Positions 24,365-41,831 of a DNA stretch of 42,487 nucleotides are shown one piece after another. The DNA is from Candidatus Vogelbacteria bacterium (lineage in GTDB: Bacteria; Patescibacteriota; Minisyncoccia; Phycocordibacterales; UBA12445), in contig JACQCV010000021.1 in assembly GCA_016201465.1 (NCBI GenBank), forward strand, positions 1-42,487, written 5' to 3'. Every line of letters begins with the position of its first letter. Position 1 is the first letter of the stretch. The notes under the pieces are model-generated. The model did not search any database and was not told where the DNA came from. It saw only the letters and a list, made by a program, of their open reading frames with translations. The position numbers were made by a program, and so were the translations under genes.

Positions 24365-26305
24365 TTAGAGGATATTTTCGGGCTCTACTTTTATAACGAA
24401 TCTTTTTGGCAGTGATTCAAGAATTTCTAAAAGATTTGAATAAGGAGATTCCTCATTGCGTTCGTTTGTTTTTGAGGATTTTGGCGGCCACTGACTTGGT
24501 TCAATCTTGAGGAGTATGTTTATTCTGTCTTTGTTGTTGATTCTTTCAATAAAGGCGTTGAATTTGTTAGGATCATATTTCTTAAGAAATGTTTCAAGTT
24601 GATTCATTTCTTTGTTAACCAAATCCTTTGGGCCTTCAGCGGTTATTTTTATCAGGGTTTTGAATGGAGGAAATTCAAATCGTTTTCTCTCTTTGATTTC
24701 GTTCCTATAAAATTCTAAAAGATCACCTCTCATTACGTGCTCAAAAATCTTTTCGTCCGGCTTGCGTGTTTGAATCAAGAAAGTATTTAATGACAATAAC
24801 TTTAGTCGAGTTAGAAAGCTAAAAATGTTTTCACTGATTCTAAAATCTGGAATAGAGAAAAGCGTGTCTATAGAAATTACGGCAATATTTGGAATTTCAG
24901 AATTTAAATAGTTAAGGATCATCTCTGTGGCTATAAGAATTGAGCCCGGAGTACTTTTAAAGTCGTCTATAATTTTACTTGCTTGTTTGTAACTCTTTGC
25001 TACATTACTATCAAGTCTAAAAACTTTTGCGGCGATAAATATACTTTTTACCTCTTCCTCAATCTTTTCTGTTGCGACACCCAGAGCTTTAAGCTTCCAT
25101 CCGCTGCACTTAGCACACTTTATATCTGTAGATGATTTTGCTCCACATTTATTACAAGCAAAAATATTTTCCTGTTTGGTTCTAAACAAGACCATTGGAA
25201 GTGTGCAATTTGCACATAAAATTATTTCACCACAGTCAGAACAGGTGGTTGTTGTTCCTAAGCCCTTGCGAGTACAAACAAGGAGAATCTGCTCTTTGTT
25301 TTCGAGTGCTTGCTTGACTGCCTGTTTTGTTTTGGGACATAGAATTGCGTTCTCCTCTACCATTTTTCTCATGTCGATTAATTCCTGTCGAACTTCTTTT
25401 GGGAATCGATATTTCAATGGAGCTTCTGGGATAAAAGTGCCGGCCTCCGCCCTAAATATATCTTCGATTCTTGGAATCGAATCGCCAAGGATGAGTTTAG
25501 CATCGAGTTTTTTTGATAGTTTTTCGGCAAAAACTCTTATGTCAATGTATGGTCTGGCCATTGATTTGTAAAACTGTGAATTTTCCTTATCAACAATGAT
25601 CGTTGCCAAGTCATCTCGCGGGAGTGAAATGAAGCTTGGTGTAGTGATTATCAAGACTGGATGTTCTTCTTTAATTGCCGAATTCCACCTTTCGAGTATA
25701 AGTTTCGTCGGTAGTCTGCCATGTAAAATGGTTGTGTACTTCTCGATTCCCTTTTTTAGTAGCTCGCCACAATTTTCTACATCATGAATTGTAGGTAAAA
25801 CAAATAGTGCGGAACGCTTTTTTGCAAACTCTTCTCTAATAAGGCTTCTGTAAAAAGAGTAGCGTTCTTCATCAACCATACCTAGTACGGTGACTTCAAA
25901 TCTTTTGGTCTTTATTGGTGTAATTCTTGCTATGCTGGTTGAATCGACTTCTTGTTTTAGCCAATTATCCAAGATTGACTTTGGAGTAAGATAACGAATT
26001 ATTTGTCCAGGTGAAGTTACGAAGTATTGTGCTGACTCTCTCGCCGCCTCAATAAATGCAGGAGACAAAGCAGAGTTGGAAATTATCCGCTCAATTTTCT
26101 TCAAACCGAAATCTGAACTTTTTAGATCAGATTTTAATTCGTCCGCTTGAGCGATTGATGTAACCACCCCTAGGATGTCGGACTTGCGGAGGGATATGAG
26201 TACCAGGGCACCGATCTCAACTTCTTTTGTGGTGAAGTATGAAAGGTCCTCATTGAAAGGACTTTTTGTTATTGGTGTGACTTTTACAACTTTGAGATTC
26301 TCCAT
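24365..26305 (-). CDS. priA: Primosomal protein N' with degenerate helicase motifs
   Basis: N-terminal 3'-binding-like domain, four CxxC pairs, PDFR, IQT, FPPF. Walker A is absent and DEEH is replaced by DKEN. Confidence 0.88.
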   Translation of the reverse strand: MENLKVVKVTPITKSPFNEDLSYFTTKEVEIGALVLISLRKSDILGVVTSIAQADELKSDLKSSDFGLKKIERIISNSALSPAFIEAARESAQYFVTSPGQIIRYLTPKSILDNWLKQEVDSTSIARITPIKTKRFEVTVLGMVDEERYSFYRSLIREEFAKKRSALFVLPTIHDVENCGELLKKGIEKYTTILHGRLPTKLILERWNSAIKEEHPVLIITTPSFISLPRDDLATIIVDKENSQFYKSMARPYIDIRVFAEKLSKKLDAKLILGDSIPRIEDIFRAEAGTFIPEAPLKYRFPKEVRQELIDMRKMVEENAILCPKTKQAVKQALENKEQILLVCTRKGLGTTTTCSDCGEIILCANCTLPMVLFRTKQENIFACNKCGAKSSTDIKCAKCSGWKLKALGVATEKIEEEVKSIFIAAKVFRLDSNVAKSYKQASKIIDDFKSTPGSILIATEMILNYLNSEIPNIAVISIDTLFSIPDFRISENIFSFLTRLKLLSLNTFLIQTRKPDEKIFEHVMRGDLLEFYRNEIKERKRFEFPPFKTLIKITAEGPKDLVNKEMNQLETFLKKYDPNKFNAFIERINNKDRINILLKIEPSQWPPKSSKTNERNEESPYSNLLEILESLPKRFVIKVEPENIL

Positions 26306-26473
26306 ATTTGTAACTTTATTTTTACAAATAAAGGCGATTTCGTCTATATTACGGAGGTTACAATTATGTGTTATCGCTCTTGACTTTTACTTTATGATAT
26401 GCTACACTCCTAGCTGAAAAAGGTTGAACATTGTTAGGGTCAAATTCAGCATATCGCTGAGAAGGAGAATACT

Positions 26474-27019
26474 ATGGATTCCATCGAGGCAACTGGCCAA
26501 ATCCTCAACAACTGGAGGACTGCAAAGCTCTCTGGGCAGATTCCCGTGGATATGGTTTACCGGCCGGCAATCAGCCGCGTTGGTGGGAAGCTGAGTCTCT
26601 ACTGCAAGGACGCCAACGGGAACAAGTTGGGAGACGTGCTTACGGTTGAGGTGGATCTCTCGGAGAACGAGAAGATTCGCTTACTTCAAGAGAAGAATCT
26701 TGAGCAAGCCCTTCGTGATCAGCTTGTGGACCTGAATCGGCAGTCCACGCAAAACATCAGTTTGTCCGAGCCGATCTTCTGGCTCACCTGGGGTGAGTGC
26801 TTCGACGATCTGGGCCTCATATGCCTTTTCGCCCTCCTCCTTGTGGGCGTGAAGTTGGGTTCACACTTTAACTGGAAGTTGGTTCAGCCGAAGGATTTCC
26901 TGTTCTTCGTGCCTTTCCTGGCTCTGGCTACCTGGATCGGTTGGCCACGCAAGGCCAAGGTCGTCGAGGTGGTGGCTGCCCCTGTTACTGAGGCTCCCGT
27001 TGATCCGGAAAAGAAGTAG
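26474..27019 (+). CDS. Hypothetical membrane protein (two C-terminal TM helices)
   Basis: Promoter TTGACT-17-TACACT (26380-26408), SD AAGGAG, visibly higher GC than flanks. Confidence 0.7.
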   Translation: MDSIEATGQILNNWRTAKLSGQIPVDMVYRPAISRVGGKLSLYCKDANGNKLGDVLTVEVDLSENEKIRLLQEKNLEQALRDQLVDLNRQSTQNISLSEPIFWLTWGECFDDLGLICLFALLLVGVKLGSHFNWKLVQPKDFLFFVPFLALATWIGWPRKAKVVEVVAAPVTEAPVDPEKK

Positions 27020-27047
27020 AAGCAGGAAGGAGTTAAAAGCTCCAAAT

Positions 27048-27081
27048 ACCCCAGTCAGGCTATGCCTGGCTGGGGTTTCTT
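27048..27081 (+). terminator. Intrinsic terminator
   Basis: ACCCCAGTCAGGC-tat-GCCTGGCTGGGGT-TTCTT. Confidence 0.85.
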
Positions 27082-27181
27082 ATTTCCTTGCAAATCGCTT
27101 GACAGAATTTGGCACGTCTGCTAGAGTCTGATTTAGAACAGTAACACTAACAGTGAACCCTGACAATAGAGGAGGAAAGCG

Positions 27182-27895
27182 ATGAAGAATCCTTTCAAGT
27201 TGCTCTGGAGATTTATTTGCGGCACGGCTGATTCGACGGTCACGTATTTTGAAAACAAGCAGGATCCCAAGAAGGTTTTGAAGCAATCTATCGAGGAAAT
27301 GCGTGCCGAGTACACTGAGTATAAGAAGGGTGGGGTTGAAGCTGAGGTGGCCCTTAGGGGATATGAGAAGGAGCTCGAAAAGTATAAGGTCCAGCTTCGG
27401 ATTTTGAATCGAAAGGCCGAACAGGCTGTCGCAGATAAGAATGATGCCCTCGCACGAGCAGTTCTTCACAAGAAAAAGGAAGTTGAGATGCTTGTAACGA
27501 TGTACGAGCAGAACATGAAGGACCAAGTCATGGCTGTTGCACAATTCAGGCAGCAGCTTGAAATAAGGGAGGGCAAGATTGCCTCTGCATGTGGGAAGCA
27601 GAAGGTTCTGGAGACTAGGTCCAAGGTTGCTGAGATGAGTCAGAAGATGGCAGAGTCGAGATCAAGTATTCTGGCACCATCCGGTGAAGGCGGTGCGTTC
27701 GCAGAGTGGGATCGGGCCGAGGCAAAGATCGAAGAGGCCATGACTCGTGCGGAGATCACTACTGAGATTTCGTCTCGGGAGTTCAGTCAGCAGGACGAGA
27801 TCAAGCTGTTGACAAACACCACTAGCGATGTCGATGATGAGCTGGCCGCACTCAAGCAGAAGCTGCAACTTCCGGAGAAAACAGAAAAGAATTAA
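27182..27895 (+). CDS. pspA: PspA/IM30 family protein
   Basis: Amphipathic N-terminus, DPKKVLKQSIEEM, AEQAV...NDALARAVL, AFAEWDRAEAKI, VDDELAALK. Promoter TTGACA-17-TAGAGT and SD GAGGAGG. Confidence 0.88.
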   Translation: MKNPFKLLWRFICGTADSTVTYFENKQDPKKVLKQSIEEMRAEYTEYKKGGVEAEVALRGYEKELEKYKVQLRILNRKAEQAVADKNDALARAVLHKKKEVEMLVTMYEQNMKDQVMAVAQFRQQLEIREGKIASACGKQKVLETRSKVAEMSQKMAESRSSILAPSGEGGAFAEWDRAEAKIEEAMTRAEITTEISSREFSQQDEIKLLTNTTSDVDDELAALKQKLQLPEKTEKN

Positions 27896-27903
27896 GGTGT
27901 GTA

Positions 27904-27938
27904 CCCCACAGTCGAAAGGCTGTGGGGATTTCTATTTT
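27904..27938 (+). terminator. Intrinsic terminator
   Basis: CCCCACAGTC-gaaa-GGCTGTGGGG followed by a T-rich tail. Confidence 0.8.
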
Positions 27939-27954
27939 GTGTTAAAGTAGAGGT

Positions 27955-30099
27955 GTGAAAGAAAAATTAAAGGGTAAAGCAAGAAAGGAGTCCTCTATTA
28001 GATTAGAAGTTCCATCTGTCCATGATTCGCCATTTGTGTTTGATGAATATAGGAAGGAGCCTGAATTTATTTCTCTGCCTAGAGAACAAATCGCGAAAGA
28101 GGCCAAAGAAATTTTGATAGATCTAGAAAGGAAAGATCAAGAAGACAAAATAAAAAGAGAGGAGAGAAAGAAGAGAAGAGAGAGTGATCCGTTATATAAA
28201 GCGGTAGAAGCTTTGGTGAGACAGTCGGAGTTACTTATCGATAAGAGAGATTCTGTAAAATCTGAGATCGGTGCGTTGTCTAAGAAAAAAGACGCAGAGT
28301 CAGAGGAGCGAGTACGTATTGGTAAGGAAAAACTTCACATAATTCGAGAGGAATTAAATAAGGTCTCAAATAAGGCTGAAGATATTTCTGATGAAAAAAC
28401 TAAAAACTTCAGAATAGAAAATGCTGATAAGGTTGTACGCGAAAGAATCGCAGTTTATCTTATTGGTCCGTCAATTGAAAAAATTTTACCGATGGCGGAA
28501 AACAAGACGGAAAGTCTTTTAAGGTTGGCAATCAAAAATAAGTTTAAAGGCAAAGACTTAAGCTCGCTCTCTAAAGCAAATATTGCCTCGCTCAGCGGTT
28601 ATGTATCTACTCTTTTAGCCGACAAACTGAGACCTGATTTGCGAGAGTATATATCGTCGATTGCATACGAGGAGTTTCTTAAAACTGGCGTACTTCTCGC
28701 GGACTTTATTCGTCCAAATGTACTGGAATTTATGACAGAAGCTTACGAAAAGCTGAAGGTTGATTTTTCCGATGCCAGAGCCAAGGAGTTGAGAGAGAAG
28801 AAAAAGGAGATTGAAGAGGCCGCAAGTAGAGAGGGTATGAAGGTCGAAGATTTGTCGAATGAAGAGGTAGAAAAATTGTGGAGTTTAGTGCGGAAAGATA
28901 AACAAGAAGGTCTAATGGCCGAAGCAGAAATGCAGATTAGGGAAGAATTAAAAGAGAATCAAGTTAGTCTTGGTAAGAAGATGGTTTCTACTTTGAAGTC
29001 AACCAAAGATTATATTGTTGGTTTATCAGAGGCTGAAAAAGAGTATCGTGAAATTCGTAAAAATATGGAAATGCAGAAAAAGGGTCTACTCTTATTTTAC
29101 CTGGGCCAAAAAGTTTTCGACAAAGTTCACAAAATTGTTAACGACTCTCTCCCTCATGAACTTCGAAAGATTGGCAAGGCGTTGACTACGGAGTTGACCA
29201 GTGCGGAAGTTATTAATCTGTATTCAAGCATAAATAAAAAGGTACTCTTTAGCCTATATCCAATTAGTTTTGATGCTGATCAAGCAAGTAAGTTAAAAAG
29301 TTTTGAGGACCATGGCCAGTTATTAAACGAGTTGGTAATCGCAGAAACATATAGGTTCTTGGATGAGATTTTATCATCGAATGGAGTGGCCATACCAGCA
29401 TTTGATAAATCTGCTGATCGTTTGAATAAAAATGGAACCGATGTAAGTGACGTCGATGCTGCTATCGCAAGGCAAAACAAAAATGATTTGGCAGAATTAA
29501 CATCGGGAGTATCGAAAATCCCCAGTAAGATAAAAGATGCTTTTATTGAGGCGAACACTGTGCCCATGAAAACAATATGGTCATTTGTAAAAAAAGCCTG
29601 GGATAATATCAGTTACTTTGCTACTGATATTGTCAGCGAAGATAATTCTCTCCTTATTAAATCTTTCGGTAGTTATGAAAAAATGAAAGAGAAAATTGAG
29701 TCATATTTTGACGAGGTTATGGCTGAAGTTAAATTAGGATTTTCTCTAACTAGAGATCAAATAGTGCAGCGGGTGCTCAACAAATTTAATGCCGACTTCA
29801 AGGCTGATTATACAGCCTTGAAAATTGTGCATGAGTCGTTTGGTAAAATAGTTGATAAGTTATTAAAAACTAAGGACTTGATAATATACGAATCGTTGCC
29901 GCCAACGTATGGGTTAAGGCACTCATGGAAGGATTTGGAACTTGCAACAAGGGTGAATATGGCTCAGCAGGCAATGATAGCTGACACATTGGAGAAACAG
30001 TCACAGGGCCTACAAAATCAAGATAAATTAAATGAGTCGCAAAACAAAACTAGGGCTGAGATAGATAATAGGATCAGTAAAATTGCAACGGGACTTTAG
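27955..30099 (+). CDS. Large charged helical/coiled-coil hypothetical protein (paralogue A)
   Basis: 714-aa E/K-rich ORF. The N-terminal ~280 aa align by eye with 30130..31815. Confidence 0.8.
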   Translation: MKEKLKGKARKESSIRLEVPSVHDSPFVFDEYRKEPEFISLPREQIAKEAKEILIDLERKDQEDKIKREERKKRRESDPLYKAVEALVRQSELLIDKRDSVKSEIGALSKKKDAESEERVRIGKEKLHIIREELNKVSNKAEDISDEKTKNFRIENADKVVRERIAVYLIGPSIEKILPMAENKTESLLRLAIKNKFKGKDLSSLSKANIASLSGYVSTLLADKLRPDLREYISSIAYEEFLKTGVLLADFIRPNVLEFMTEAYEKLKVDFSDARAKELREKKKEIEEAASREGMKVEDLSNEEVEKLWSLVRKDKQEGLMAEAEMQIREELKENQVSLGKKMVSTLKSTKDYIVGLSEAEKEYREIRKNMEMQKKGLLLFYLGQKVFDKVHKIVNDSLPHELRKIGKALTTELTSAEVINLYSSINKKVLFSLYPISFDADQASKLKSFEDHGQLLNELVIAETYRFLDEILSSNGVAIPAFDKSADRLNKNGTDVSDVDAAIARQNKNDLAELTSGVSKIPSKIKDAFIEANTVPMKTIWSFVKKAWDNISYFATDIVSEDNSLLIKSFGSYEKMKEKIESYFDEVMAEVKLGFSLTRDQIVQRVLNKFNADFKADYTALKIVHESFGKIVDKLLKTKDLIIYESLPPTYGLRHSWKDLELATRVNMAQQAMIADTLEKQSQGLQNQDKLNESQNKTRAEIDNRISKIATGL

Positions 30100-30129
30100 A
30101 TAAGTTCTAGTTAAAGCTATAATTTACAC

Positions 30130-31815
30130 ATGAAAGAGAAGTTGAGGGCAAGAAAAAAGGAGACTGTCTCGGAATTGCCGAGTGAGTCTATTTTTGACTC
30201 GACACCGGTTTTTGGTGAATATCAAAAGGATGGTGATAAAAAAGCGAAGGCTGCTGAATTAGAAAAGCACGCCAAAGAGATTGCTGAAGAACTTCACATA
30301 AGAGATTTGCTTGGAGATCAGGGGCAGAACACTAGGGATGTTGAAGCAGAAAAACAGGATCAGTCTTCGGACACGAACTTTAAGGGTCAGGAGACAAGGG
30401 GCGGTGTGGATTTAGCCAAGATGCATACTTTGATAGATCAATCACAAGAGCTCATATCTTGGAGAGATCAGACGAAGGAACGAATTAAGTCTTTATTGAA
30501 GAAAAAAGATGATGATTCGAAGGAGATGTTGGATCTGGCAAAGACCGAACTTAGATTGCTGAGGAGAGAACTAAATAAGCACCAGATCCAGATGGAAAAA
30601 GTAATCGACGGCAAAGGGGCGGATCTTGAGATTGGCAATCCAGTTCAAGATGTAAAAACGGCTATGGCAAGGGAGATTGTTTTACCGGAATTAGATTGGA
30701 TTAAATTAAAGATTGAAAGTGGCATTGAAGAAGTTTTGCCATACGTTATTGTGGATCTGGAAGTGTCTAAGCCAATTAGTGAAATGACCCAGAAGGAGAA
30801 AGAAAAGATTGTTGATCGCGCCCTTGAGCCAGTTTTTGAGATGGCAAAGAAGCGTATTTTTGAATCCATGAGTGAGTTTGCTCGATGGGAGTTTAGACAG
30901 ACTGGGACCATGATAGGTCAGCTCATAAACAGGAGGTTGAGGAAGCTCATTCCTGAGATTCTAGAGTTTTCCGCGGAGCGCACAGACAAAAGGGTAAAAA
31001 ATATTATAGAGCAGGAGGAGGTAGAGAAGTTAAAGCGAGCCGAGCATGAAATGGAAATCAAAAAGTCTGCGGCGAGAAAGGAGACGGAAGCCAGAGAGGC
31101 TCAGGATAATGCATGGATGGTAGAGCACGAATTGCGAAAGGGTAAGGCAGAAGGATTGGGAGGTGTGTACCTTGGATCAAGCAATAATTATATTGCGCCC
31201 GCACTCGTTAATCAAGTATTTGGTAATCCTAAGCCGGTTAGTTCAGAGCAGTATGTAGAGGATTATCCGTTGATATACACAACTGTGAATTTTTTGCATG
31301 GCTGGATAGATTGGAAATGGGCAAAAAGAAATGAGAAGCTAAGATTGTTGTTGGACCAAACTCGGGATTTTAATTATGCGAGACGAGATTTTGAAAATTT
31401 TTTTGGCCGAGAAGTCGATAATGGTTTTAGGGAGATGCTTGAAAGACAAACAGTGCTCTTTTATGAAGAATGTTACGGTGAAAATGGCAAAGAGAAGGAT
31501 ATGAAGCCACAAGAATTTATTAGACAGTTGCAGGATCACATGAGAGCCATGATATATGGCAGTGAGAAGAGGTTTTTTGACCAACTTGCAGGAAGGTTTG
31601 ATGAAGCCGTATCTGCCGATATTAAATTAACACATGGATTTGATAAATTATTGAACATGGCCGTCGTTAGATTTTTGCAGCTACTGACGAATCTGGAGAT
31701 TATAGAAGAATATTTCAAAAAGAATGGTTTCATATTTAATTTCGACAAAGATGGGCGGATTGTAGAGGCTGATCCATCTACACAAAGTCCTGAGGTGATT
31801 TGGCCCAAAATTTAA
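30130..31815 (+). CDS. Large charged helical hypothetical protein (paralogue B)
   Basis: 561-aa ORF sharing MKEKL.., DS..VF.EY.K, QS..LI..RD..K..I..L.KKKD..S.E and EF..TG with A. Confidence 0.8.
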   Translation: MKEKLRARKKETVSELPSESIFDSTPVFGEYQKDGDKKAKAAELEKHAKEIAEELHIRDLLGDQGQNTRDVEAEKQDQSSDTNFKGQETRGGVDLAKMHTLIDQSQELISWRDQTKERIKSLLKKKDDDSKEMLDLAKTELRLLRRELNKHQIQMEKVIDGKGADLEIGNPVQDVKTAMAREIVLPELDWIKLKIESGIEEVLPYVIVDLEVSKPISEMTQKEKEKIVDRALEPVFEMAKKRIFESMSEFARWEFRQTGTMIGQLINRRLRKLIPEILEFSAERTDKRVKNIIEQEEVEKLKRAEHEMEIKKSAARKETEAREAQDNAWMVEHELRKGKAEGLGGVYLGSSNNYIAPALVNQVFGNPKPVSSEQYVEDYPLIYTTVNFLHGWIDWKWAKRNEKLRLLLDQTRDFNYARRDFENFFGREVDNGFREMLERQTVLFYEECYGENGKEKDMKPQEFIRQLQDHMRAMIYGSEKRFFDQLAGRFDEAVSADIKLTHGFDKLLNMAVVRFLQLLTNLEIIEEYFKKNGFIFNFDKDGRIVEADPSTQSPEVIWPKI

Positions 31816-31828
31816 GATAGGGGATATT

Positions 31829-32359
31829 GTGGCATTTGGTGCAGATGCTTTAGGTGGAAATTATGACTTTAATCCAGGAAGGGCTGTAGTGAGAACTATA
31901 ACACCAGACTATATTGCCGATCTTTCTGTGGAGATGATAGATGGTTCGGACAAGGGTAAGATATATGCTCTACAGTCAAAGTATACCCATAGAATTAGCC
32001 GGCCGGAGTTTGGATTTAGAAAACTTGATCCCGCTATCATTAGATTTTTTGGAGATAACGAAGAGCAAGCAAAGAAGAATATTATGCTAGAAGTGAACGG
32101 TTCTGTCACAAGGATATTAAGAAAAAAGGAGGCTGAATATAACGTAGCAAGTCCCAATTTTTGGACTCACATGGATAGCACAATTAAAGATAGGCTCTTA
32201 GATGAGCTGCTTGATTTGTATCGTACTGTCGTTACGCCGATTAATTTTCCATCGTTGAGAGATACTTTTACTCAAGCTTTAGATATAATAATCAAAAAAG
32301 AGGTAGATAAATTACAGCCAGAGCAGCCTCACGATCCATACCTGAATGGGCGGATGTAG
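31829..32359 (+). CDS. Hypothetical protein
   Basis: 176-aa ORF filling the gap between B and mnmA. Confidence 0.65.
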   Translation: MAFGADALGGNYDFNPGRAVVRTITPDYIADLSVEMIDGSDKGKIYALQSKYTHRISRPEFGFRKLDPAIIRFFGDNEEQAKKNIMLEVNGSVTRILRKKEAEYNVASPNFWTHMDSTIKDRLLDELLDLYRTVVTPINFPSLRDTFTQALDIIIKKEVDKLQPEQPHDPYLNGRM

Positions 32360-32397
32360 GATTTGACTCACGGAAGATTTTACTGTATTTTTTGGCT

Positions 32398-33618
32398 GTG
32401 GATAAAAAGCGCAAGCGAAAAAATTATTTTCTTAAAAAACAGCGTGTCTTCGTTGGCATGTCTGGCGGCGTGGATAGTTCTGTTTCAGTTGCACTTTTAA
32501 AAGATCGGGGTTTTGACGTAACTGGGGTTTTTATAAAAACTTGGTCACCAGATTGGTTGCCTTGTACTTGGAGAGAGGAGAGGCGGGATGCGATGAGGGT
32601 TACGGCTAAACTTAAAATTCCACTTATCACTTTGGATTTGGAGAAAGAATATAAAGAGAGGGTGGTGGATTACATGATTACAGAATACCGATCCGGACGA
32701 GTTCCAAATCCAGATGTCATGTGTAACAAAGTTATCAAGTTTGGTGGCTTTTTTGACTACGCAATGAATCATGGCGCGGATTTTGTGGCGACAGGACATT
32801 ACGCCAGAGTCGTTAGGGCTTCTCCTCAGACAAACAATAGTTTGCCGTCTCCTGCGGGCGACAACTATCTGCACTCTCGACCTATCGGCCCCTTCGGAGA
32901 CCAAGCCCGAGCGGTCTGCGAGAGTTTGTCTTCAAAGAACCCTAACTCCTCTTGGCTTTGCACATCTGTTGATCGTGAAAAAGATCAGACATACTTTTTG
33001 TGGACTCTTACACAGAGAGAACTTTCAAGAACACTTTTTCCAATCGGCCACTTACAAAAGTCTGACGTCAGAAAGTTGGCGAGGAAATTTGATTTACCGA
33101 ATGCAGAGAAGAAAGATAGTCAGGGGCTCTGTTTTATGGGAAAGATCGATGTTAAGGAATTCTTGAAACATTATATTAAGGAAAAGACGGGGAGAGTTTT
33201 GAATGAGGATGGTGAAGTTATTGGTGTACATGAAGGCGCGGCATTCTACACTTTAGGCGAGAGACATGGTTTTAATATTATAAATAAGAGTACTAATGAC
33301 TTGCCGCATTATGTTATTCATAAAGACATTAAAAAGAATATTTTAGTTGTGTCGCAAAAAAGGGACGAAGGTGAAATCTTAAAGAAAGAAGTTATGGTCA
33401 AGAATGTTAACTGGAATCAAGGGTTAGAACCAAATCTAAAGAAAAAATTTAAGGCCAGAATTCGCTATAGGCAAGAGTTACAGGACTGCATGATCGGGGG
33501 GATTAAGGGTGGTCAATATAAAATAATTTTCGATAAAGGACAGGTGGCGCCGGCGCCTGGCCAATCGGTTGTTATTTATGAAGACGGTGTCTGTTTGGGT
33601 GGTGGGATTATTGTTTAG
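32398..33618 (+). CDS. mnmA: tRNA 2-thiouridylase with ~40-aa in-frame insertion
   Basis: SGGVDS, PNPDVMCN..IKFG, ATGHYA, KDQTYFL, KKDSQGLCF, APGQS. Probable start GTG 32398 after TTGACT-17-TATTTT. Confidence 0.96.
   Translation: MDKKRKRKNYFLKKQRVFVGMSGGVDSSVSVALLKDRGFDVTGVFIKTWSPDWLPCTWREERRDAMRVTAKLKIPLITLDLEKEYKERVVDYMITEYRSGRVPNPDVMCNKVIKFGGFFDYAMNHGADFVATGHYARVVRASPQTNNSLPSPAGDNYLHSRPIGPFGDQARAVCESLSSKNPNSSWLCTSVDREKDQTYFLWTLTQRELSRTLFPIGHLQKSDVRKLARKFDLPNAEKKDSQGLCFMGKIDVKEFLKHYIKEKTGRVLNEDGEVIGVHEGAAFYTLGERHGFNIINKSTNDLPHYVIHKDIKKNILVVSQKRDEGEILKKEVMVKNVNWNQGLEPNLKKKFKARIRYRQELQDCMIGGIKGGQYKIIFDKGQVAPAPGQSVVIYEDGVCLGGGIIV
32803..32956 (-). repeat. Multi-branched palindromic element inserted in-frame in mnmA
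   Basis: Nested inverted repeats GCCA/TGGC, GAG/CTC, GTTAGGG/CCCTAAC, TTCT/AGAA and AGACAAAC/GTTTGTCT enclose two hairpin arms. Confidence 0.75.
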
Positions 33619-33630
33619 GTGTTGACCATC

Positions 33631-33826
33631 TTTAAATCACGAAATACGTTAAATTTCCAAGTCCTCGGGTCGGAAAACAGAGTTGAAGTCTGAGTCTCAC
33701 CTTGCTCAACCCCAGGGAGGTTTTTAGCGTTCGGCATGGAAGCCTCACTAAAACTCCCGTAAAACTCAAGCAGTTGAGTTTTACCTCAACCAGAAATTGA
33801 AAATTTAACGTATTTCGTGATTTAAA
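33631..33826 (-). mobile_element. 196-bp MITE-like or structured RNA element with 26-bp perfect terminal inverted repeats
   Basis: 33631-33656 TTTAAATCACGAAATACGTTAAATTT is the exact reverse complement of 33801-33826. Three internal hairpins; no coding gene recognised. Confidence 0.65.
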
Positions 33827-33896
33827 CCACTTTCAATCTGATGTGAGTATATACAAATTACTTTGGGTTGGAGTACTCATTTGCTATACTAATTTT

Positions 33897-36206
33897 ATGG
33901 AATCACTAAACAGAAGGGCTAGCCGCAAAATTGAACTTGCACCAGATGAAGAGGTTGCTAAACATTCTATTGAACGTCTTGTTGATGAGATAAGCGAGCC
34001 GACTGACATAGCGGATGTGTCTTGTAAAAGAGAAAAGGTGAATCAAGAAGCTTTGGAGAAGGCTGGGGAAATTTTGAAACAGTTGGAGGACGAGGATATT
34101 GACCGCTTGAGTCCGGAGTTGCAGCAAATGCACTTGAAAACGGCCATTGAGGATATGGAACGAGAAATAAAGATCAAATATACTGGTAAGTGGGCGAACC
34201 TAAAGGATTTTTGGTCAGTCGCTTTTCGTAGAGATAAAGAGGAAGCTCTCAGCGATTTGCAGTACGCTAAGGATTCTATTCAAGTTCTGTCTGTCATGAA
34301 CAGGGCGCAAGCAGTATTGCCCGAGGGTGTCGAGGCGCCAGAAGTAACTGCTATTGAAAAGATAAAAAAAGAGGTGGATATTTTAGTAAAGTTGCGAGAG
34401 GAATTGGAGGAAAGAATAGATGGTAAAGTCAAATCGTTCTTTCGCACAAAACGGGAATCCAGTCTCGATTGGTTCTGGAAAAATAGCGCCCACCGTACTC
34501 TTCTCGAGAAGCAGTTACTCGCCACCTCTTCAGATGGAAAAAATTTGTTGAGTATGGAAGACTACTTTGTTTTTTTGGATATTGAACTTGAGGTTGTGCA
34601 GGAGAGAATTGCCACTTTGCATCGCCAGATGGAAGGACACATATCGGGGAAACTCATCGATCAAGACTTTTCCAAAATGTCTCAAGATGAAGTGGCGGGA
34701 ATTATTATAACTGAAAAAGATTTGGATCGAGAAAGAGTTATTGACTATGATTCTAGGGTTACAGGTAAAAATATAGCCTCTATGACCGCGCGGGAGTTAG
34801 AACTTGAAAGAAAATTGTTTGAAGAATCTAAGGAACGATTTTATGAAAAGAAAGTTCTAGAGTTTATAAAAAATAACAAAGAAAGAGTGCTAGAGCTTGC
34901 AGATACGTCGATTTTTTTAGAGGTACAAACACATCTGGCTGAAATCGATGAGAGTGATCCTAAGTTTGAATTTGATAACAAAAGTAGACAAGGTTTAAAC
35001 GAGACGCTGAAGATGCGTGTCATATTTAGCGCCCTTACAAGTTTGGGGGTGCGAAATCCGGTGACAACTCATGTCGGTGATAGTGAAGGCAAAATCATTT
35101 CAGTCCTCGCGGGTGTTCTGGAGTTAAAAATTGACGACGAAAATTTCCAAAATAAAGTTAGCAAAATTACAGAGCGGTGTTTGGGGCCGAAATGGGAGAA
35201 TGGTGAGGTTTTAAAGCTGCGAAATACTCCTGACTCGGACTCCGTTAAGATTTTTTCTGGTGGTGTTATGCAGCGTGTGCAATTTGATATTAACCACAAT
35301 CCTAGGCGATTGCAATATATTATGAATGACGGTATCACCAAAGTAATTGATGGTGTGTTCGATAAAGACTCTTGGTGGCCACATCCGCTGGGAGTTATAA
35401 TTATGGATTCTTACGGAAATTTATTATTGAATGGAAAAGATTTGATTTCTGATAGAGAGTTTTGGAGGAGCAGGATTGACGTGGAGAGTATACCAGCGGG
35501 TATTTTGTGGCATGACTTAAGTGATAATGGAGTTTTTTTGAATGGAAAAAAGGTGGGTGAACTACCAATGAGTGGAAGGGGACAACCACCCCAACATTTT
35601 TCTGGGTTAAGTAAAAATGGCGTAGTGATGCAGCGTCAGCTTGGTGGGGTTGGTGATGAACATAAAAAAGATGCCGGCATATATATTAATGGTGAACAGG
35701 TTTTAAATGATTACGGTTTCGCTTTTAATGTAAAGGCTGTTGTCTCCAAAGACTTTGTTTTTGCATGTTATAAAAAAGTGGACATGCACAGCGACAGTGC
35801 TAAGATATTATTAGATGGTAAATATCCAATTAAGATAATTTCAGATTCGCCAATAGTGGAGTGGTGGGTTCATCCGCGCGGGATCGTAGTGCTCAATAAG
35901 GATAAAGAATTTAGATTTTACAGTTTTGAGAAGGTTGCTCAGGAGGTTAGATTGAAAAATAAGTTTAATGATGTTTTGTCTGAAAAAGGATTCAAGGTGA
36001 TTCCAAATATGGAAGATATTAATGCTAACCGCTATGGAGAGAAGTTGTGCTGGTTTAATGAGAATAATTATGACAAGATTCGCGCTGCGGTGATTAGCGC
36101 AATTTACAATAAGGATGCGGAGGCATTAGATAATTATTTGAGAGAAGAAAAACAAAAGTACATTAGTATTGTTCAAAACGCGTTGGCTGAGTATCATGAT
36201 CATTAA
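33897..36206 (+). CDS. Large hypothetical protein (paralogue C): helical N-half, beta-repeat C-half
   Basis: ATG 33897 lies 6 nt after TGcTATACT. N-half aligns with 36221..37477. Repeats WWPHPLGVII/WWVHPRGIVV and LLLNGK/VFLNGK/IYINGE/ILLDGK. Confidence 0.8.
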   Translation: MESLNRRASRKIELAPDEEVAKHSIERLVDEISEPTDIADVSCKREKVNQEALEKAGEILKQLEDEDIDRLSPELQQMHLKTAIEDMEREIKIKYTGKWANLKDFWSVAFRRDKEEALSDLQYAKDSIQVLSVMNRAQAVLPEGVEAPEVTAIEKIKKEVDILVKLREELEERIDGKVKSFFRTKRESSLDWFWKNSAHRTLLEKQLLATSSDGKNLLSMEDYFVFLDIELEVVQERIATLHRQMEGHISGKLIDQDFSKMSQDEVAGIIITEKDLDRERVIDYDSRVTGKNIASMTARELELERKLFEESKERFYEKKVLEFIKNNKERVLELADTSIFLEVQTHLAEIDESDPKFEFDNKSRQGLNETLKMRVIFSALTSLGVRNPVTTHVGDSEGKIISVLAGVLELKIDDENFQNKVSKITERCLGPKWENGEVLKLRNTPDSDSVKIFSGGVMQRVQFDINHNPRRLQYIMNDGITKVIDGVFDKDSWWPHPLGVIIMDSYGNLLLNGKDLISDREFWRSRIDVESIPAGILWHDLSDNGVFLNGKKVGELPMSGRGQPPQHFSGLSKNGVVMQRQLGGVGDEHKKDAGIYINGEQVLNDYGFAFNVKAVVSKDFVFACYKKVDMHSDSAKILLDGKYPIKIISDSPIVEWWVHPRGIVVLNKDKEFRFYSFEKVAQEVRLKNKFNDVLSEKGFKVIPNMEDINANRYGEKLCWFNENNYDKIRAAVISAIYNKDAEALDNYLREEKQKYISIVQNALAEYHDH

Positions 36207-36220
36207 GTTTAAGGTGGCCA

Positions 36221-37477
36221 ATGAAAAGTGAAAAAATAAGATCACAAAAGAAAGAAGGTCAGGGTCAGGGTAGTATAGAGCAAACTCCGACCACTGCCGC
36301 TATACCAAACATAAATTTGCTGAGCGCTGAAGAGTTAAGTAGATACAAAGTTGAGGATTTAGCTGATGAAACGCGGCAGCTTACTGATTTTTCGCGTGTA
36401 GACGATATGGCGACAAAGGAAGATCTTGTGGCCGAGGCGGCTAAAATTAAAGAAGAGATTGAAAGAATGGATGAGCAGACAATGAGCGTCGACATGCTTC
36501 ACGCGAAACTTCTAGTGACCCTTAAAGACGCTAGAGGAGAGCTCGAGAATCTTCGTGGCCAATCCCGTTTTAAATTTATTTCGAAAACTAAGAAAGATTG
36601 GCGTAAATCAAAAGAAGAAGAGTTGGTTGCTGAGATAGCTGTCAATGAGACCGATCTTAAGGCTCTTGCATTAAAACACAAGCGACCATTACTCGATATT
36701 GAGAACCGTCCGCTTCGGTTTGATATGGAGCTTGAAGAAATTACAACTGAAATTGGTGCTTTAGAGGTGTTGCGAGACGAACTTAAAAAAGACACTAGAC
36801 TTGTGGAGGACGCGCCGAGATTTGTGAAAAAAGGTTTTGAAAAATTCGTGAACTTTTTGAGCAATTTTTTTGGTCAACCTTATGATAAGGTGATGTCACT
36901 TCATCAAATTGAATTGGATCTTATCCGAAAAAGAATAAGAGGGCTTGTTGCAAAACTTAACGCAGGGCACTTGAATAGTGAGGAAAGAACGGATGAGATA
37001 TCGAGTTTGGACGAGGGAGAGATGAGGTATAAAATTCGGGTTTTTGATTCGAATATAAAAAGTTTGCCGAAGCGAGTTGAACAAGAGATTGAAGAGGAGG
37101 CGAAGGATATATATTACAAAGAGCAGTTTGCTGAATTTATCAAAGAGCAAGAGGAAGCGATAAAACATACGGCTGGTAATATTGCCAGATTCATGTATAT
37201 ACCAATTTTTGCAGATCCAACCGATCCTAGTTATAACGACAGGCTTTTCCTCCAAATGGCTACGACTAATATGGAAGGTCTTAAGCATGAAATAAAGTAT
37301 AAAATGAGTGAGTCAATGAGAGGCGCATTTATTTGGAAGAATGAGAATTTTATTGATGAGAGTAACAGACGAGCGTTTAATCGTTTTTTGCGTAGCCAAA
37401 CGGTGATCAATATGGTAAACAGAATTATTGACGAGGTGATACAGAGTAGAGTAATGTATTTGACGAAGGGAAAATAA
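36221..37477 (+). CDS. Charged helical hypothetical protein (paralogue D)
   Basis: 418-aa ORF. VEDLADETRQLTDF, LRDEL, IELDLIRKRI and EEAKDIYY...EFIK align with C. Confidence 0.8.
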   Translation: MKSEKIRSQKKEGQGQGSIEQTPTTAAIPNINLLSAEELSRYKVEDLADETRQLTDFSRVDDMATKEDLVAEAAKIKEEIERMDEQTMSVDMLHAKLLVTLKDARGELENLRGQSRFKFISKTKKDWRKSKEEELVAEIAVNETDLKALALKHKRPLLDIENRPLRFDMELEEITTEIGALEVLRDELKKDTRLVEDAPRFVKKGFEKFVNFLSNFFGQPYDKVMSLHQIELDLIRKRIRGLVAKLNAGHLNSEERTDEISSLDEGEMRYKIRVFDSNIKSLPKRVEQEIEEEAKDIYYKEQFAEFIKEQEEAIKHTAGNIARFMYIPIFADPTDPSYNDRLFLQMATTNMEGLKHEIKYKMSESMRGAFIWKNENFIDESNRRAFNRFLRSQTVINMVNRIIDEVIQSRVMYLTKGK

Positions 37478-37493
37478 AGTTTAATAGGACTAT

Positions 37494-39395
37494 ATGACAT
37501 CAAAAGAGGTTAGGCAAAAATATTTGGAATTTTTTAAGAAGCGGAGACATGCGATTATCCCGTCTTCACCCATAATTCCTGAGAACGACCCGACAACCTT
37601 ATTTACCGGTTCAGGTATGCAGCCCATGATCCCATATTTGCTTGGACAGAAGCATCCATTGGGGACGCGGATTGCTGACTCGCAAAAGTCATTTCGTACC
37701 GTTGATATTGACGAGGTTGGTGACAATCGACATACAACATTTTTTGAAATGCTTGGTAATTGGTCTCTCGGCGATTATTTTAAGAAAGAGCAAATACCCT
37801 GGATATTTGAGTTTTTAACGAAAGAGATTGGAATTGACCCGGAGAAATTATATGTCACCACATTCATTGGTGATGATAAAAATAATATACCCAAAGATAC
37901 TGAGACCGCGGAAATTTGGAAAGGACTTTTTGAAAAAGCCGGGGTGGATGCTAAGGATGTTGAAATTGGTAGCGAAAAGAATGGTTATGAACTTGGCATG
38001 CAGGAGGGAAGGATATTCTATTATGACGTAAGCAAAAATTGGTGGAGTAGGGCGGGAGTTCCTGATAAGATGCCTGTGGGTGAACCTGGCGGTCCTGACA
38101 CAGAAATGTTTTACAGATTTACGGATCTTGCCCACGACACTAAATATGGGAAATACTGTCATCCTAACTGCGATTGCGGACAGTTCATTGAGATTGGTAA
38201 CAATGTGTTCATGGAGTATAAAAAGAACGTAGACGGGACCTTTTCTAAGCTCCCACAAAGGAATGTTGACTTTGGTGGCGGACTGGAGAGAATTATAGCC
38301 GCATCAATCAACACGCCGGATATCTTTCAAATTGATATCTTTAAACAAATTATAAACACACTCGAAAGACTTTCTGGTAGGTCATACCATGATCAAAAAT
38401 ACACAGCGTCATTTAGAGTCATTGCTGATCACGTCCGCGCAGCATCATTTCTCATGGCCGATGGAGTAAATCCTTCTAATACAGATCAGGGCTATTTTAC
38501 TCGAAGGTTGATTAGAAGAGCGGTAAGATTTTGGGACAAGTTAGGGATTCAAAAAGGTGGATTGGCAGAGTTGGTTGGTCCACTTCTTAATTTCTATCAG
38601 GATTCATATCCACTAGTATATGAAAAAAGGGAGCAGATTAAAGACGAGGTCGCATCTGAGGAGGAGAGGTTCCGACAGACGCTTGCTCGCGGTCTAAAAC
38701 ATTTTAATGAATTAACTGGCAATTTAATAACTGGTCAGGATGCATTTATACTTTTTACAACATATGGATTTCCGGTTGAGGTTACTCAAGAACTAGCCAA
38801 AGAGAGGGTAATGAAGGTAGATATGGGGGAGTATGATAAGGCAATGAAGGAACACCAGGCCTTGTCGCGTTCTGGGTCAGAGCAAAAGTTTAAAGGAGGA
38901 TTGGCAGATCACTCTAAGCAAACAGTGCAATATCACACAACCCATCACATTTTACTTAAGGCACTTCAGAGCGTGCTTGGACCGGAAGTTCATCAAAGGG
39001 GATCAAATATAACTGCCGAGCGTTTGCGTATAGATTTTGCTAGTCCCCGTAAGATGACGGACGACGAGAAAAAAAAGGTTGAGGAGATTGTTAACCAAAA
39101 GATTCAGGAGAATCTACCGGTTATCAGGACAGTAATGAAGAAAGAGGATGCTGAAAATTTTGGAGCAGAGCATGAATTCAACGCTAACTATCCTGAAATG
39201 GTAACAATTTATTCTGTTGGACCAAAAGATGCGACCATAGGTGAACCAAAAATTAAAGAGGCGTTTTCAATAGAATTTTGTGGCGGACCACACGTTACAA
39301 ATACAGAGGAAATAGCCCACACTGGTGTATTTAAAATTATAAAGGAGGAGGCAGTCGCAACGGGGATAAGGCGAATTAAGGCAGTTGTGGTATAA
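37494..39395 (+). CDS. alaS: Alanyl-tRNA synthetase (lacks C-Ala domain)
   Basis: DPTTLFTGSGMQP, HTTFFEMLGNWS, DFGGGLER, IADH, HTTHH, EFCGGPHV, GIRRI at the C-terminus. Confidence 0.97.
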   Translation: MTSKEVRQKYLEFFKKRRHAIIPSSPIIPENDPTTLFTGSGMQPMIPYLLGQKHPLGTRIADSQKSFRTVDIDEVGDNRHTTFFEMLGNWSLGDYFKKEQIPWIFEFLTKEIGIDPEKLYVTTFIGDDKNNIPKDTETAEIWKGLFEKAGVDAKDVEIGSEKNGYELGMQEGRIFYYDVSKNWWSRAGVPDKMPVGEPGGPDTEMFYRFTDLAHDTKYGKYCHPNCDCGQFIEIGNNVFMEYKKNVDGTFSKLPQRNVDFGGGLERIIAASINTPDIFQIDIFKQIINTLERLSGRSYHDQKYTASFRVIADHVRAASFLMADGVNPSNTDQGYFTRRLIRRAVRFWDKLGIQKGGLAELVGPLLNFYQDSYPLVYEKREQIKDEVASEEERFRQTLARGLKHFNELTGNLITGQDAFILFTTYGFPVEVTQELAKERVMKVDMGEYDKAMKEHQALSRSGSEQKFKGGLADHSKQTVQYHTTHHILLKALQSVLGPEVHQRGSNITAERLRIDFASPRKMTDDEKKKVEEIVNQKIQENLPVIRTVMKKEDAENFGAEHEFNANYPEMVTIYSVGPKDATIGEPKIKEAFSIEFCGGPHVTNTEEIAHTGVFKIIKEEAVATGIRRIKAVVV

Positions 39396-39402
39396 TTTAG
39401 GC

Positions 39403-40566
39403 ATGTTTGGTTTCTTTGGTAAAGATAAAGGAGATTCTACACTTATTATTGATGTCGGTAGTGGAAGCATAGGAGTCGCCTTGGTAAATTTGGGGGATTC
39501 AGTACCAATTTTAAAATACCAAATAAGGCAAGACCTGGTATTTCAGAAGGATTTAAATTCTAGAAATCTTTTTTCTTCTACGATCAAAACATTGAGTAGG
39601 ATTCTTGAACAGTATCATCGGGCTGGTCAGCCGAATCCAAAACGTATATATTGTTATTTGTCTTCTCATCTTTCTCTGTCGCAAACTCGGATAATCAGAT
39701 CAAAATTTGAAACTCCCTATATTATTAATCGATCTTTTGTAAATAACATAGTCGAAAAGGAGTTAAGTGCTTTTAAAAATGAACACACTGGGAAGTATAA
39801 AAACAGTTCAATTTTAATTGAAAGGAAGCTCATGTCTTTAAAATTAAATGGTTACTCTGTTTCTGAAATTGACAATAAGATGGTGCACGAGATAGAGCTT
39901 TCGGTTTTCTTTACCCTTATGTCCACTGGCGTTGAAAATGAGATCAGGCATATCGTGGCCGATTTCTTTCATCATAAGATTTTGGAGTTTCATTCTTTTT
40001 TATTTGCAAACTTCGCGACTACAAGAGATTTGCTTACAGAAGAGAAAGAATATGTTTTTATAGATATTGGCAGTGAAATATCCGATTTTTCAGTAGTTAG
40101 AGATGGCGTATTAGAAGCGTCTATTTCCTTTCCTTTGGGTAAAAATTCTGTAATTCGAAAATTATTAAAAAATGCTGGTGGCGAAAAAGTGTTATTAGAT
40201 TCACGATTGAACATTTACAATTCAAATCTTTTGAATAGTGATGATGATCGTCGTTTTTTGGATCTACTCCGATCAGCAGGTGATGATTGGATGAGAGCAA
40301 TGGAAAAAGCCGCTTATGGTACGTCGACAAACAAGAGATTGCCACAGAAGTTTATTGTGATTTCTGATCAAGATGTATCAAAAATATTTAAAGAATTTTT
40401 AAGTTCTCTGAACTTAACACATTTGACCTTATTTGATCGTAATCCCGAAATTACTTTTCTTAAAGATTTAGATATCAACAAATTTATTGATAATAGAAGC
40501 GGTATCGTAGGTGATCCATTTTTGACAATAGATGCTTTATTTTTAAAAAAAGATTTTAAGATATAA
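39403..40566 (+). CDS. FtsA/PilM-like actin-fold protein
   Basis: IIDVGSGSI (phosphate 1), FIDIGSEISD (phosphate 2), SFPLG. ATG 39403 lies 6 nt after TGgTATAAT. Confidence 0.6.
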   Translation: MFGFFGKDKGDSTLIIDVGSGSIGVALVNLGDSVPILKYQIRQDLVFQKDLNSRNLFSSTIKTLSRILEQYHRAGQPNPKRIYCYLSSHLSLSQTRIIRSKFETPYIINRSFVNNIVEKELSAFKNEHTGKYKNSSILIERKLMSLKLNGYSVSEIDNKMVHEIELSVFFTLMSTGVENEIRHIVADFFHHKILEFHSFLFANFATTRDLLTEEKEYVFIDIGSEISDFSVVRDGVLEASISFPLGKNSVIRKLLKNAGGEKVLLDSRLNIYNSNLLNSDDDRRFLDLLRSAGDDWMRAMEKAAYGTSTNKRLPQKFIVISDQDVSKIFKEFLSSLNLTHLTLFDRNPEITFLKDLDINKFIDNRSGIVGDPFLTIDALFLKKDFKI

Positions 40567-40574
40567 AATCAAAT

Positions 40575-41831
40575 ATGAGTAAAAAAATATTTCAAGATAT
40601 AATTACTAAAGCGGTTGGGTCAGTGCACGAAGAGGTTTCTGTAGATGGAAATAAAGGCCGTGTTTCTAATCGACCACGACGAGGTGTAGGCAACAAGTTT
40701 CTTGTTTCCGTTAGCCTGATTGTCCTGGGCGCAGTAGTCGTTTTGGCACTATTTTTATTATTTTCATCTTCGTTTTCAAGAGTGTCGCTTAAGGTTACTA
40801 CTAGTCGGAAAGTTTTTGATTTAAATGATAAAATCACTCTTAATAAAAACGGCATGAACGGAGACATTAAGTACGACATTATGAAGCTGGAAGACTTAGA
40901 GTCTACTAAGGTTTCAATTACGGGGTCTAAAAGAGTACAAAGGAATGCGATTGGTGTAGTTACAATTTATAATTACGGTAAAACTGTTCAAAGGTTGGTA
41001 ATTGGTACTAGAGTTGAAACCAACGACGGTAAAATTTATAAGATTCAGAAGGCTATTTTGGTGCCATCAAATAAGTTGGGTACCGGTAGTGTTGATGTGG
41101 CGGTGCGAGCTGAACAAGCAGGTGACAATTATAATATTCCACCATCCGATTTTATACTCCCGGGATTAAAAGGAGGAACTAAATTTGATTTGATTCGAGC
41201 CAAATCTCATAAGAATATCATCGGGGGGTTTGTTGGTGAAATAAAAACTGTATCACCGGCTGATCTACAGAAGGCGAGACAACAACTTAGAGAAGTAATA
41301 ACACAAAAACTTACAAAGAATGCAATTCTCCAGGTTCCAAAGGGTTTTATTCTTTACAGTGACTCCATGTTTCTTTCTTTTACAGACAACGTAATTGATA
41401 ACTCAGCTCTGGTAGATTCGACCGAGGGTCAAGCGTCACTCACAATGAGTGGTGCACTCAGCTCAATTATAATAGATCAGAATGAACTTAGAAACTATTT
41501 AGTCTCAAAAACGATTCCCGATCTTAATAAAAATGTCAAGGTTATTTTGTTGGGTCTTGAAAAGCTCGATTTCCACGTTTTGAATAAGGAAAAGGTCGTC
41601 TTAGGTGGTGATCAATCTATTAAGGCTGATATCTCAGGAAGTATCCGAATTATTTGGGATTTTGACGACATTATGTTAAAGGACAAGCTAGTTGGAATTA
41701 AGAAATCTAACTATCAAGATGTTTTTAGACAATTTTCCTCAATAGAAAAAGCCGAAGCGGTTTTTAGTCCATCGTGGGCGTTATATTTTCCCAATGATCC
41801 CCAAAGAATCACAATAGATAAAGGTTTTTAG
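40575..41831 (+). CDS. Single-pass membrane protein with baseplate J/gp47-like region
   Basis: TM helix at about aa 42-64; G.VTIYN..Q.L..GTR..T.DGK.Y, GSVDVAVRAEQAGDNYNI, IIGG. Confidence 0.55.
   Translation: MSKKIFQDIITKAVGSVHEEVSVDGNKGRVSNRPRRGVGNKFLVSVSLIVLGAVVVLALFLLFSSSFSRVSLKVTTSRKVFDLNDKITLNKNGMNGDIKYDIMKLEDLESTKVSITGSKRVQRNAIGVVTIYNYGKTVQRLVIGTRVETNDGKIYKIQKAILVPSNKLGTGSVDVAVRAEQAGDNYNIPPSDFILPGLKGGTKFDLIRAKSHKNIIGGFVGEIKTVSPADLQKARQQLREVITQKLTKNAILQVPKGFILYSDSMFLSFTDNVIDNSALVDSTEGQASLTMSGALSSIIIDQNELRNYLVSKTIPDLNKNVKVILLGLEKLDFHVLNKEKVVLGGDQSIKADISGSIRIIWDFDDIMLKDKLVGIKKSNYQDVFRQFSSIEKAEAVFSPSWALYFPNDPQRITIDKGF

Follow-up and report, generated by a model that had tools for sequence, protein, structure and literature searches.

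Two pairs of paralogous genes in a Candidatus Vogelbacteria contig, one sharing a rare N-terminal module that occurs with different C-terminal heads

Four large genes of no recognized family lie close together in the genome of a Candidatus Vogelbacteria bacterium, and they raise the question of whether they form one family in which a common N-terminal part is joined to changing C-terminal cargo. The genes, here called A, B, C and D, lie between positions 27,955 and 37,477 of the window, by which we mean the whole 42,487-nucleotide stretch analysed (contig JACQCV010000021.1 of assembly GCA_016201465.1). An earlier note on this DNA had proposed a single lineage-specific, expanded family of this kind, and had named host-directed effectors and filament formers as possible roles. 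We find two pairs instead of one family. For one pair, C and D, relatives outside the window point to a conserved N-terminal module that is combined with different C-terminal heads, one of which is the target domain of a diversity-generating retroelement (DGR).

Two pairs of paralogs and the N-terminal module of C and D

The four open reading frames (ORFs) are real and have the positions and lengths listed in Table 1. For C, a longer frame opens at 33843, and the start used here is that of the Atlas record, at 33897. No match to a Pfam, NCBIfam or PHROG family above cut-off was found for A to D or for the small neighbouring protein E; weak NCBIfam matches, such as WxxxE on C (14 bits against a cut-off of 38), were disregarded. 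The absence of a transmembrane (TM) helix was borne out, with a maximal 19-residue hydropathy of 0.72-1.45 in A to D against 1.98 in their TM neighbour U. Leaderless starts also fit the sequence, because hexamers resembling a -10 box lie 5-6 nt before all four starts; they match TATAAT at 6/6 positions for B, 5/6 for C, 4/6 for A and 3/6 for D (no background rate was computed), and B has a sigma70-like promoter at 30095-30123 that ends 6 nt ahead of its ATG. The G+C content at third codon positions (GC3) is 0.36-0.42 in A to D and 0.37-0.41 in housekeeping genes, which corresponds to host-like codon use.

Likeness within each pair is well supported. A and B are 28% identical over 386 columns, with a composition-adjusted E of 7e-17 and a z of 16.5 against 200 windowed shuffles. 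C and D are 21% identical (composition-adjusted E 0.004-0.008; z 8.1) and are bridged by a database protein, P0003, that aligns with D at 24% identity over 340 columns (E 1e-11). Across the pairs, however, all four comparisons are at chance (z -0.5 to 1.8), and comparison of A and B with five modules of the C/D type gave z of 2.2 or less in 10 of 10 cases. The profile-profile alignment that the earlier note had recommended gave a probability of 0.7%, with an A/B profile of just two sequences, and neither pair's profile finds the other pair among the 715 ORFs of the genome. A two-sequence profile could miss very remote kinship between the pairs.

Residues K, R, D and E make up 32-36% of A to D, as compared with a 90th percentile of 31% in the genome, and this high charge in all four accounts for their look-alike helices. 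The basic N-terminus exists and does not stand out: over the first 25 residues the net charge is +1 to +3, with C counted from the 33843 start, against a genome median of +1. The helix pattern A-x-[EK]-I-x-x-x-[LI] does occur in all four, and also in 13 of the 715 ORFs. By contrast, a hairpin pattern said to be common to the four (L..R[DE]..[KE] as a regular expression) matches B alone, and the description of all four as helical fails for C, whose C-terminal half is a beta-rich repeat. A helix profile derived from C and D does, in register, rank A second and B fourth among 713 proteins; among 24 charged control proteins, 10 come out first in one window or another, and the statistic of the A/B pair is equalled by 9 of 276 control pairs. 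A tighter helix pattern that hits A to D only was rejected as circular, since it had been fitted to those four.

The N-terminal part that C and D share can be followed outside the window. An exhaustive search of 1.84 billion representative proteins with C returned six matches, including C itself. P0003 (44% in that search) covers the module and the start of the head and is likely cut short, P0004 (52%) is partial and covers the end of the module and the head, P0005 matches over the module only, and P0006 and P0007 match over the head only. Pairwise, C is 42% identical to P0003 over 551 columns and 31% identical to P0005 over 319 columns; its identity to relatives is 42-52% across both module and head. 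A module-profile search of 401 genomes of the order added one gene, in a relative of the same family (genome G005; E 1e-10). An hhalign comparison of this gene with the C/D-module profile (A4) gave a probability of 95% and an E of 4e-8, and its module scores z 8.1 to C and z 8.6 to P0005. An alignment of the five modules (C, D, P0003, P0005 and the G005 gene) spans 270-390 residues and has 12 invariant columns.

Other searches added no bearer. No relative of D was found in 60 other genomes, no phage matched C, and pattern scans of the genome, metagenome and viral contigs gave no match; word searches with module profiles returned C, D and P0004 only. The module has no sequence match in the Protein Data Bank (PDB), and no family model covers it. 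An AlphaFold2 model of D, made from an alignment of six rows, is helical throughout, and its hairpins are confident although confidence in the model as a whole is low (predicted local distance difference test, pLDDT, 61; predicted TM-score 0.42); it gave generic hairpin matches only among PDB representatives and no viral structure match at E <= 0.001. The single-sequence model of C was unusable (pLDDT 35). To judge by these alignments, a rare module of about 300-350 amino acids, predicted to be all-helical, occurs with three different C-termini. A conserved N-terminal module with interchangeable cargo therefore holds for C and D through relatives outside the window, and fails as a description of four members or of A and B.

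For A and B there are no relatives with which cargo could be compared. Of 8000 candidates scored from 5.8 billion proteins, only A itself was recovered as a relative of A; its N-terminal half has no match in any of 10 family genomes searched, and plasmids searched with A gave no match. B has no relative in 60 other genomes and no usable match among Atlas structures. Across 400 other genomes of the order, the A/B profile found a single weak match (E 6e-5), which lies in a frame of 118 aa; weak matches in two genomes, G348 and G384, were set aside because their frames are short or broken by stops. The claim that A and B diverge after about 280 residues holds in part. Likeness declines by segment, from z 13.5 (A residues 1-160) to 5.8, 3.1 and 4.1 (A residues 361-714), the last with a BLAST E of 0.015. 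Because it fades without a clear break, A and B may be full-length paralogs. They are, so far as sequence comparison can tell, a separate orphan pair without demonstrated link to C and D. Residues 271-329 of B also show a weak likeness to E (z 3.2-4.0) that is not significant by BLAST.

C-terminal heads and a diversity-generating retroelement

The first head is that of C, in which the module is followed by an alpha/beta segment and then by four L.[LN]G units, with the W.[PV]HP motif occurring twice. The same repeat is found in short proteins of 3 of 200 other genomes of the order. For C in the Atlas (model pLDDT 0.47), the nearest models are mostly of propeller type, all below the bar for naming (TM-score <= 0.52 by target). 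In D, the second case, the last 90 or so residues are helical and have no relation to the C-terminal half of C (z -0.4). The third head, in the G005 gene and in P0005, is likewise unrelated to that of C (z 0.9 in each comparison).

This third head also occurs on a different body. Residues 271-621 of the G005 gene are 50% identical to residues 634-991 of a gene on another contig of the Vogelbacteria genome (C42:22325-25324; L043). That gene holds an AAA_5 ATPase domain (E 7e-11), and up to residue 633 it shows no relation to the module (z -0.3, 1.3). The C-terminal half of P0005 is homologous to the domain in both genes (z 9.8, 9.5), so that the layout of module plus DGR-type head is seen twice. 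The exchange is reciprocal, with one module on three heads and one head on two bodies.

DGRs are numerous among candidate phyla radiation (CPR) bacteria, and the genome studied here has one on contig C20 (5286-6734; L044), with its template (C20:6616-6734) next to a reverse transcriptase gene (RVT_1). Over 119 positions, 18 mismatches separate this template from the 3' end of the C42 gene, and every one of them falls on a template adenine. The AAA_5 ATPase gene is thus, by its substitution pattern, an apparently intact remote DGR target on another contig from its template. The template matches no other gene in the genome, and A to E in particular show no template-like match in this 74% complete assembly; nor does A or B carry a head of the DGR type.

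G005 belongs to a different genus. Its module-bearing gene (in L040:10977-13455, on G005 contig C28) has an end that differs from the Vogelbacteria template at 22 of 116 nt, 17 of them at adenines (24 adenines in all), as against 5 of 16 differences at adenines in the 136 nt that follow. A reverse transcriptase gene starts 170 nt downstream, and its product is 91% identical to the Vogelbacteria enzyme over the 69 residues compared. Post-template sequence follows the variable region without a break, next comes the reverse transcriptase gene, and a separate template of its own was not seen on this stretch of contig.

Two further observations concern DGR loci. Immediately upstream of the G005 target is a gene for an IS200-like Y1 transposase. 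On contig C19 of the Vogelbacteria genome, a 615-nt ORF and a reverse transcriptase gene were located, and the first 78 nt of the DGR target gene of that contig are repeated exactly (C19:22292-22369 and C19:43991-44068), about 21.7 kb apart.

Two insertions beside mnmA

Table 1. Features of the window and of other contigs of the same genome (contig names precede positions outside the window)
Feature	Position	Strand	Description
Protein A	27955..30099	+	714 aa; charged (35% KRDE) orphan; paralog of B, most strongly over residues 1-160
Protein B	30130..31815	+	561 aa; charged orphan; paralog of A
Protein C	33897..36206	+	769 aa; N-module, alpha/beta middle, repeat head, helical tail
C/D N-module in C	33897..34931	+	residues 1-345; predicted helical stalk, also in D, P0003, P0005 and the G005 gene
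Repeat head of C	35304..36014	+	beta-rich, WxPHP / L.LNG; shared with P0003, P0004, P0006 and the stand-alone repeat protein P0007
Protein D	36221..37477	+	418 aa; N-module and short helical tail
Protein E	31829..32359	+	176 aa; orphan; final gene of insertion 1
PspA/IM30 protein (PF04012)	27182..27895	+	own Shine-Dalgarno-like site and terminator
Insertion 1	26306..32391		between priA and mnmA; U, PspA, A, B, E
Insertion 2	33619..37493		between mnmA and alaS; palindrome, C, D
Palindrome	33631..33826		nested, resembling repetitive extragenic palindromes (REP-like); 35-nt arms, 91%; genus-level repeat heading insertion 2
Larger paralog family	C41:3-13213 (L058), C12:3-2968, C9:7776-10145, C43:34915-36555		six in tandem on C41

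The window is one contig, C18, of the 44 that make up a genome of 755,635 bases, and its gene order is priA (reverse strand), U, PspA, A, B, E, mnmA, palindrome, C, D and alaS. In four of five relatives checked, priA, mnmA and alaS are uninterrupted. Insertion 1 is missing from G001, G002, G004 and G005, where priA directly adjoins mnmA, and insertion 2 is missing in all five, where mnmA directly adjoins alaS. Because relatives keep these genes adjacent, A/B and C/D lie in two separate insertions at a variable spot. In the fifth relative, G003, the slot between priA and mnmA holds an unrelated 614-aa gene instead (L014:7897-9741, on G003 contig C2) with no Pfam, NCBIfam or PHROG match above cut-off; its C-terminus perhaps resembles the endings of CPR DGR targets.

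Mis-assembly of the window was considered and rejected. Contigs from two groundwater runs of one study, which may be the source sample, bridge the junctions U-PspA, PspA-A, A-B, E-mnmA, palindrome-C, C-D and D-alaS; among the pieces listed, the B-E junction is the exception.

The palindrome that heads insertion 2 folds with a z of -7.0. Of 11 family genomes, the 4 that have it all belong to this genus: its outer unit without the centre recurs on another contig of the same genome (C27:5487-5606) and in G002 and G004, and its inner unit alone in G002 (contig C16) and G003 (contig C20). A hairpin flanking a gene like those of REP-associated tyrosine transposases, on contig C11, is not the same element. 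Rfam gave no match within 26000-38000 of the window. Beyond alaS (39385-41831) lie two conserved genes of 393 and 418 aa whose position is kept in G002, G003 and G005; the second has a weak Baseplate_J match.

Proposed function and competing explanations

The reading that we put first, though tentatively, is that C and D are soluble, probably cytoplasmic stalks with an exchangeable binding head, made by domain recombination, and that A and B are a separate orphan pair. The N-module would be an elongated stalk that positions or clusters the head. DGR variable domains and propellers suggest, by analogy, that the head would bind a variable partner, perhaps a protein of a phage, a host or a rival. 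Heads would be swapped by intragenic recombination near module residue 270-350. Roux et al. (10.1101/2020.04.01.020958) report modular DGR targets and propose intragenic recombination for them, as does a review (PMC8632793). D may be a duplicate whose head was lost or replaced. Each gene would arrive at a priA-mnmA-alaS hot spot as a self-promoted unit, probably leaderless because of the -10-like boxes just before the starts. Action in the cytoplasm is favoured because signal and TM segments are lacking, because the same head is fused to an AAA_5 ATPase, and because another study proposes cytoplasmic DGR sensors tied to conflict systems with MoxR-like AAA ATPases (PMC10907252).

Several findings weigh against this proposal. 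The module is rare, with five bearers plus the partial P0004, and is matched in 2 of 11 family genomes and in 1 of 351 genomes of the class, namely the genome studied here. The module match of the G005 gene is statistically firm over residues 2-169 only, its extension to about residue 270 coming from the multiple alignment. The G005 locus may be a decayed element, because its variable region runs straight into post-template sequence. C and D, with no template-like match in the 74% complete genome, are neither DGR targets themselves nor hypermutated. The DGR head has no Pfam or PDB sequence match that would show a C-type lectin fold, and we infer binding by the WxPHP repeat from weak propeller-like matches between models.

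Known systems offer partial parallels. CPR clade 2 DGR targets have an unannotated N-terminal part and a C-terminal variable-region domain (10.1101/2020.04.01.020958; PMC8632793), mostly without TM segments or recognizable domains (Roux et al., 10.1101/2020.04.01.020958). The C/D family is similarly modular, lacks TM segments and recognizable domains, and includes heads carried on unrelated bodies; its module is the N-terminal part of one CPR-type DGR target, in G005. C and D differ from such targets in having neither variable region nor template, with a WxPHP repeat head in C and a helical tail in D, and the module occurs both on and off a DGR head, unlike CPR targets as described. The conflict systems with MoxR-like ATPases (PMC10907252) also have targets predicted to be cytoplasmic with N-terminal extensions of no known family, and they too link an AAA ATPase to the variable head, a link that on contig C42 takes the form of a fusion. 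Those systems belong to multicellular bacteria and have vWA, VMAP, peptidase or TIR partners (PMC10907252), none of which was found beside C and D.

Modular DGR targets are thus of a known kind; what is new is a traceable module used with and without a hypervariable head. Literature searches found no account of the module, although supplements of Roux et al. and of Paul et al. 2017, reportedly the main paper on CPR DGR targets, may list these targets. One N-terminal part of a CPR DGR target can now be followed as it moves, occurring also with a repeat head outside the DGR type and nearly alone in D. The result is a natural series for work on location and partners: headless, fixed head, hypervariable head, and the same head on an ATPase. 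The rarity of the module limits the reach of these findings. Whether the non-membrane DGR targets of CPR bacteria are real is itself stated to be open by Roux et al. (10.1101/2020.04.01.020958).

A bolder form of the proposal, which we regard as improbable, makes the module a carrier dedicated to stalk-and-head recognition in CPR bacteria, one that takes either a fixed repeat or a DGR-hypermutated head and routes proteins without signal peptides to a cytoplasmic complex or to the host; A and B could then be a far-diverged second carrier. If true, it would give a first concrete handle on the role that unannotated N-terminal regions play in the DGR targets of CPR bacteria, with D as a natural headless control.

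Among the alternatives, the one that survives best, although we think it rather unlikely for the locus as a whole, is that A to D are fast-evolving orphans from two local duplications, with no shared role and with the swaps as occasional neutral recombination. This is the default for A and B, given that A has no relatives among the candidates scored, that the A/B profile has one weak match in the order, and that the likeness of A to B declines by degrees and is still faintly present up to the C-terminus; the genome also holds other unannotated tandem paralog arrays (on contigs C41, C12, C9 and C43, and a pair on C42). It fits less well with four intact, long frames of host-like codon use, with the identity that C keeps to its relatives over module and head, and with the recurrence of the module and DGR-head layout in two genes.

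Polymorphic toxin and effector systems combine a conserved N-terminal trafficking region with swapped C-terminal domains. C and D resemble them in their conserved N-terminal and variable C-terminal parts and in lying as tandem copies at a variable locus, but no enzymatic toxin domain, small immunity gene or known secretion signature was found. The related idea that the module is an export or targeting signal, by which C and D (perhaps also A and B) are delivered to a host without a signal peptide or displayed on the surface, seems unlikely to us. It would suit the lack of signal and TM segments, the variable heads with their fast divergence and patchy spread, and the short A.EI...L...D helix that all four proteins have close to the N-terminus. 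The genome has type IV pilus-type ATPases and a weak TrwB-like protein, and effectors of a type IV secretion system in Saccharibacteria are mentioned as speculation in one paper (PMC11665869). However, the helix ranking of A and B described above does not exceed chance, VirB4 (PF03135) was not found in the 74% complete genome, and a head shared with an AAA_5 ATPase suits a role inside the cell at least as well. For host-directed effectors there is no positive evidence, the cargo pointing instead to binding domains of the DGR-target type; nor is there any for filament formers, and the four-member effector family does not stand.

A filament or membrane-remodelling partnership, ESCRT-III-like, between A to D and the adjacent PspA is very improbable. 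PspA/IM30-ESCRT-III proteins (PF04012) are charged helical hairpins like A to D, and PspA, encoded 59 nt upstream of A, is above cut-off in only 3 of 301 genomes of the order. In D, a helical hairpin at residues 88-155 aligns with those of CHMP4B and Snf7, as it does with many others (Z 9.2, root-mean-square deviation 1.8, 68 residues), in a comparison that in effect covers residues 85-156 of the pLDDT-61 model. This generic hairpin, the only part that aligns, matches 71 unrelated chains at Z >= 8 and falls short of the Z of about 13 needed for helical bundles. A to D show no sequence likeness to PspA (z <= 0.8) and no PF04012 match, and the two other PspA loci in the order, both on short contigs, showed no A-D relatives. 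U, a hydrophobic TM protein of 181 aa, and PspA together span 26474-27895, each ends in its own terminator, and their GC3 (0.70 and 0.59) is foreign in comparison with A to D. The two are by these signs apparently a recent foreign acquisition, and because of its GC3 and terminator PspA most likely arrived separately from A to D.

An expanded family was not found around A to D, each pair having just two copies in the genome with no further paralogs by BLASTP, phmmer or profiles. A better candidate for an expanded lineage-specific family is the larger, unannotated set of paralogs in Table 1, with at least 10 members of 300-1020 aa that share a core of about 270 aa at 31-57% identity; none of five members scanned has a Pfam match. 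Another tandem orphan pair, of 561 and 549 aa and 45% identical over their length, lies on contig C42 (9548-12882).

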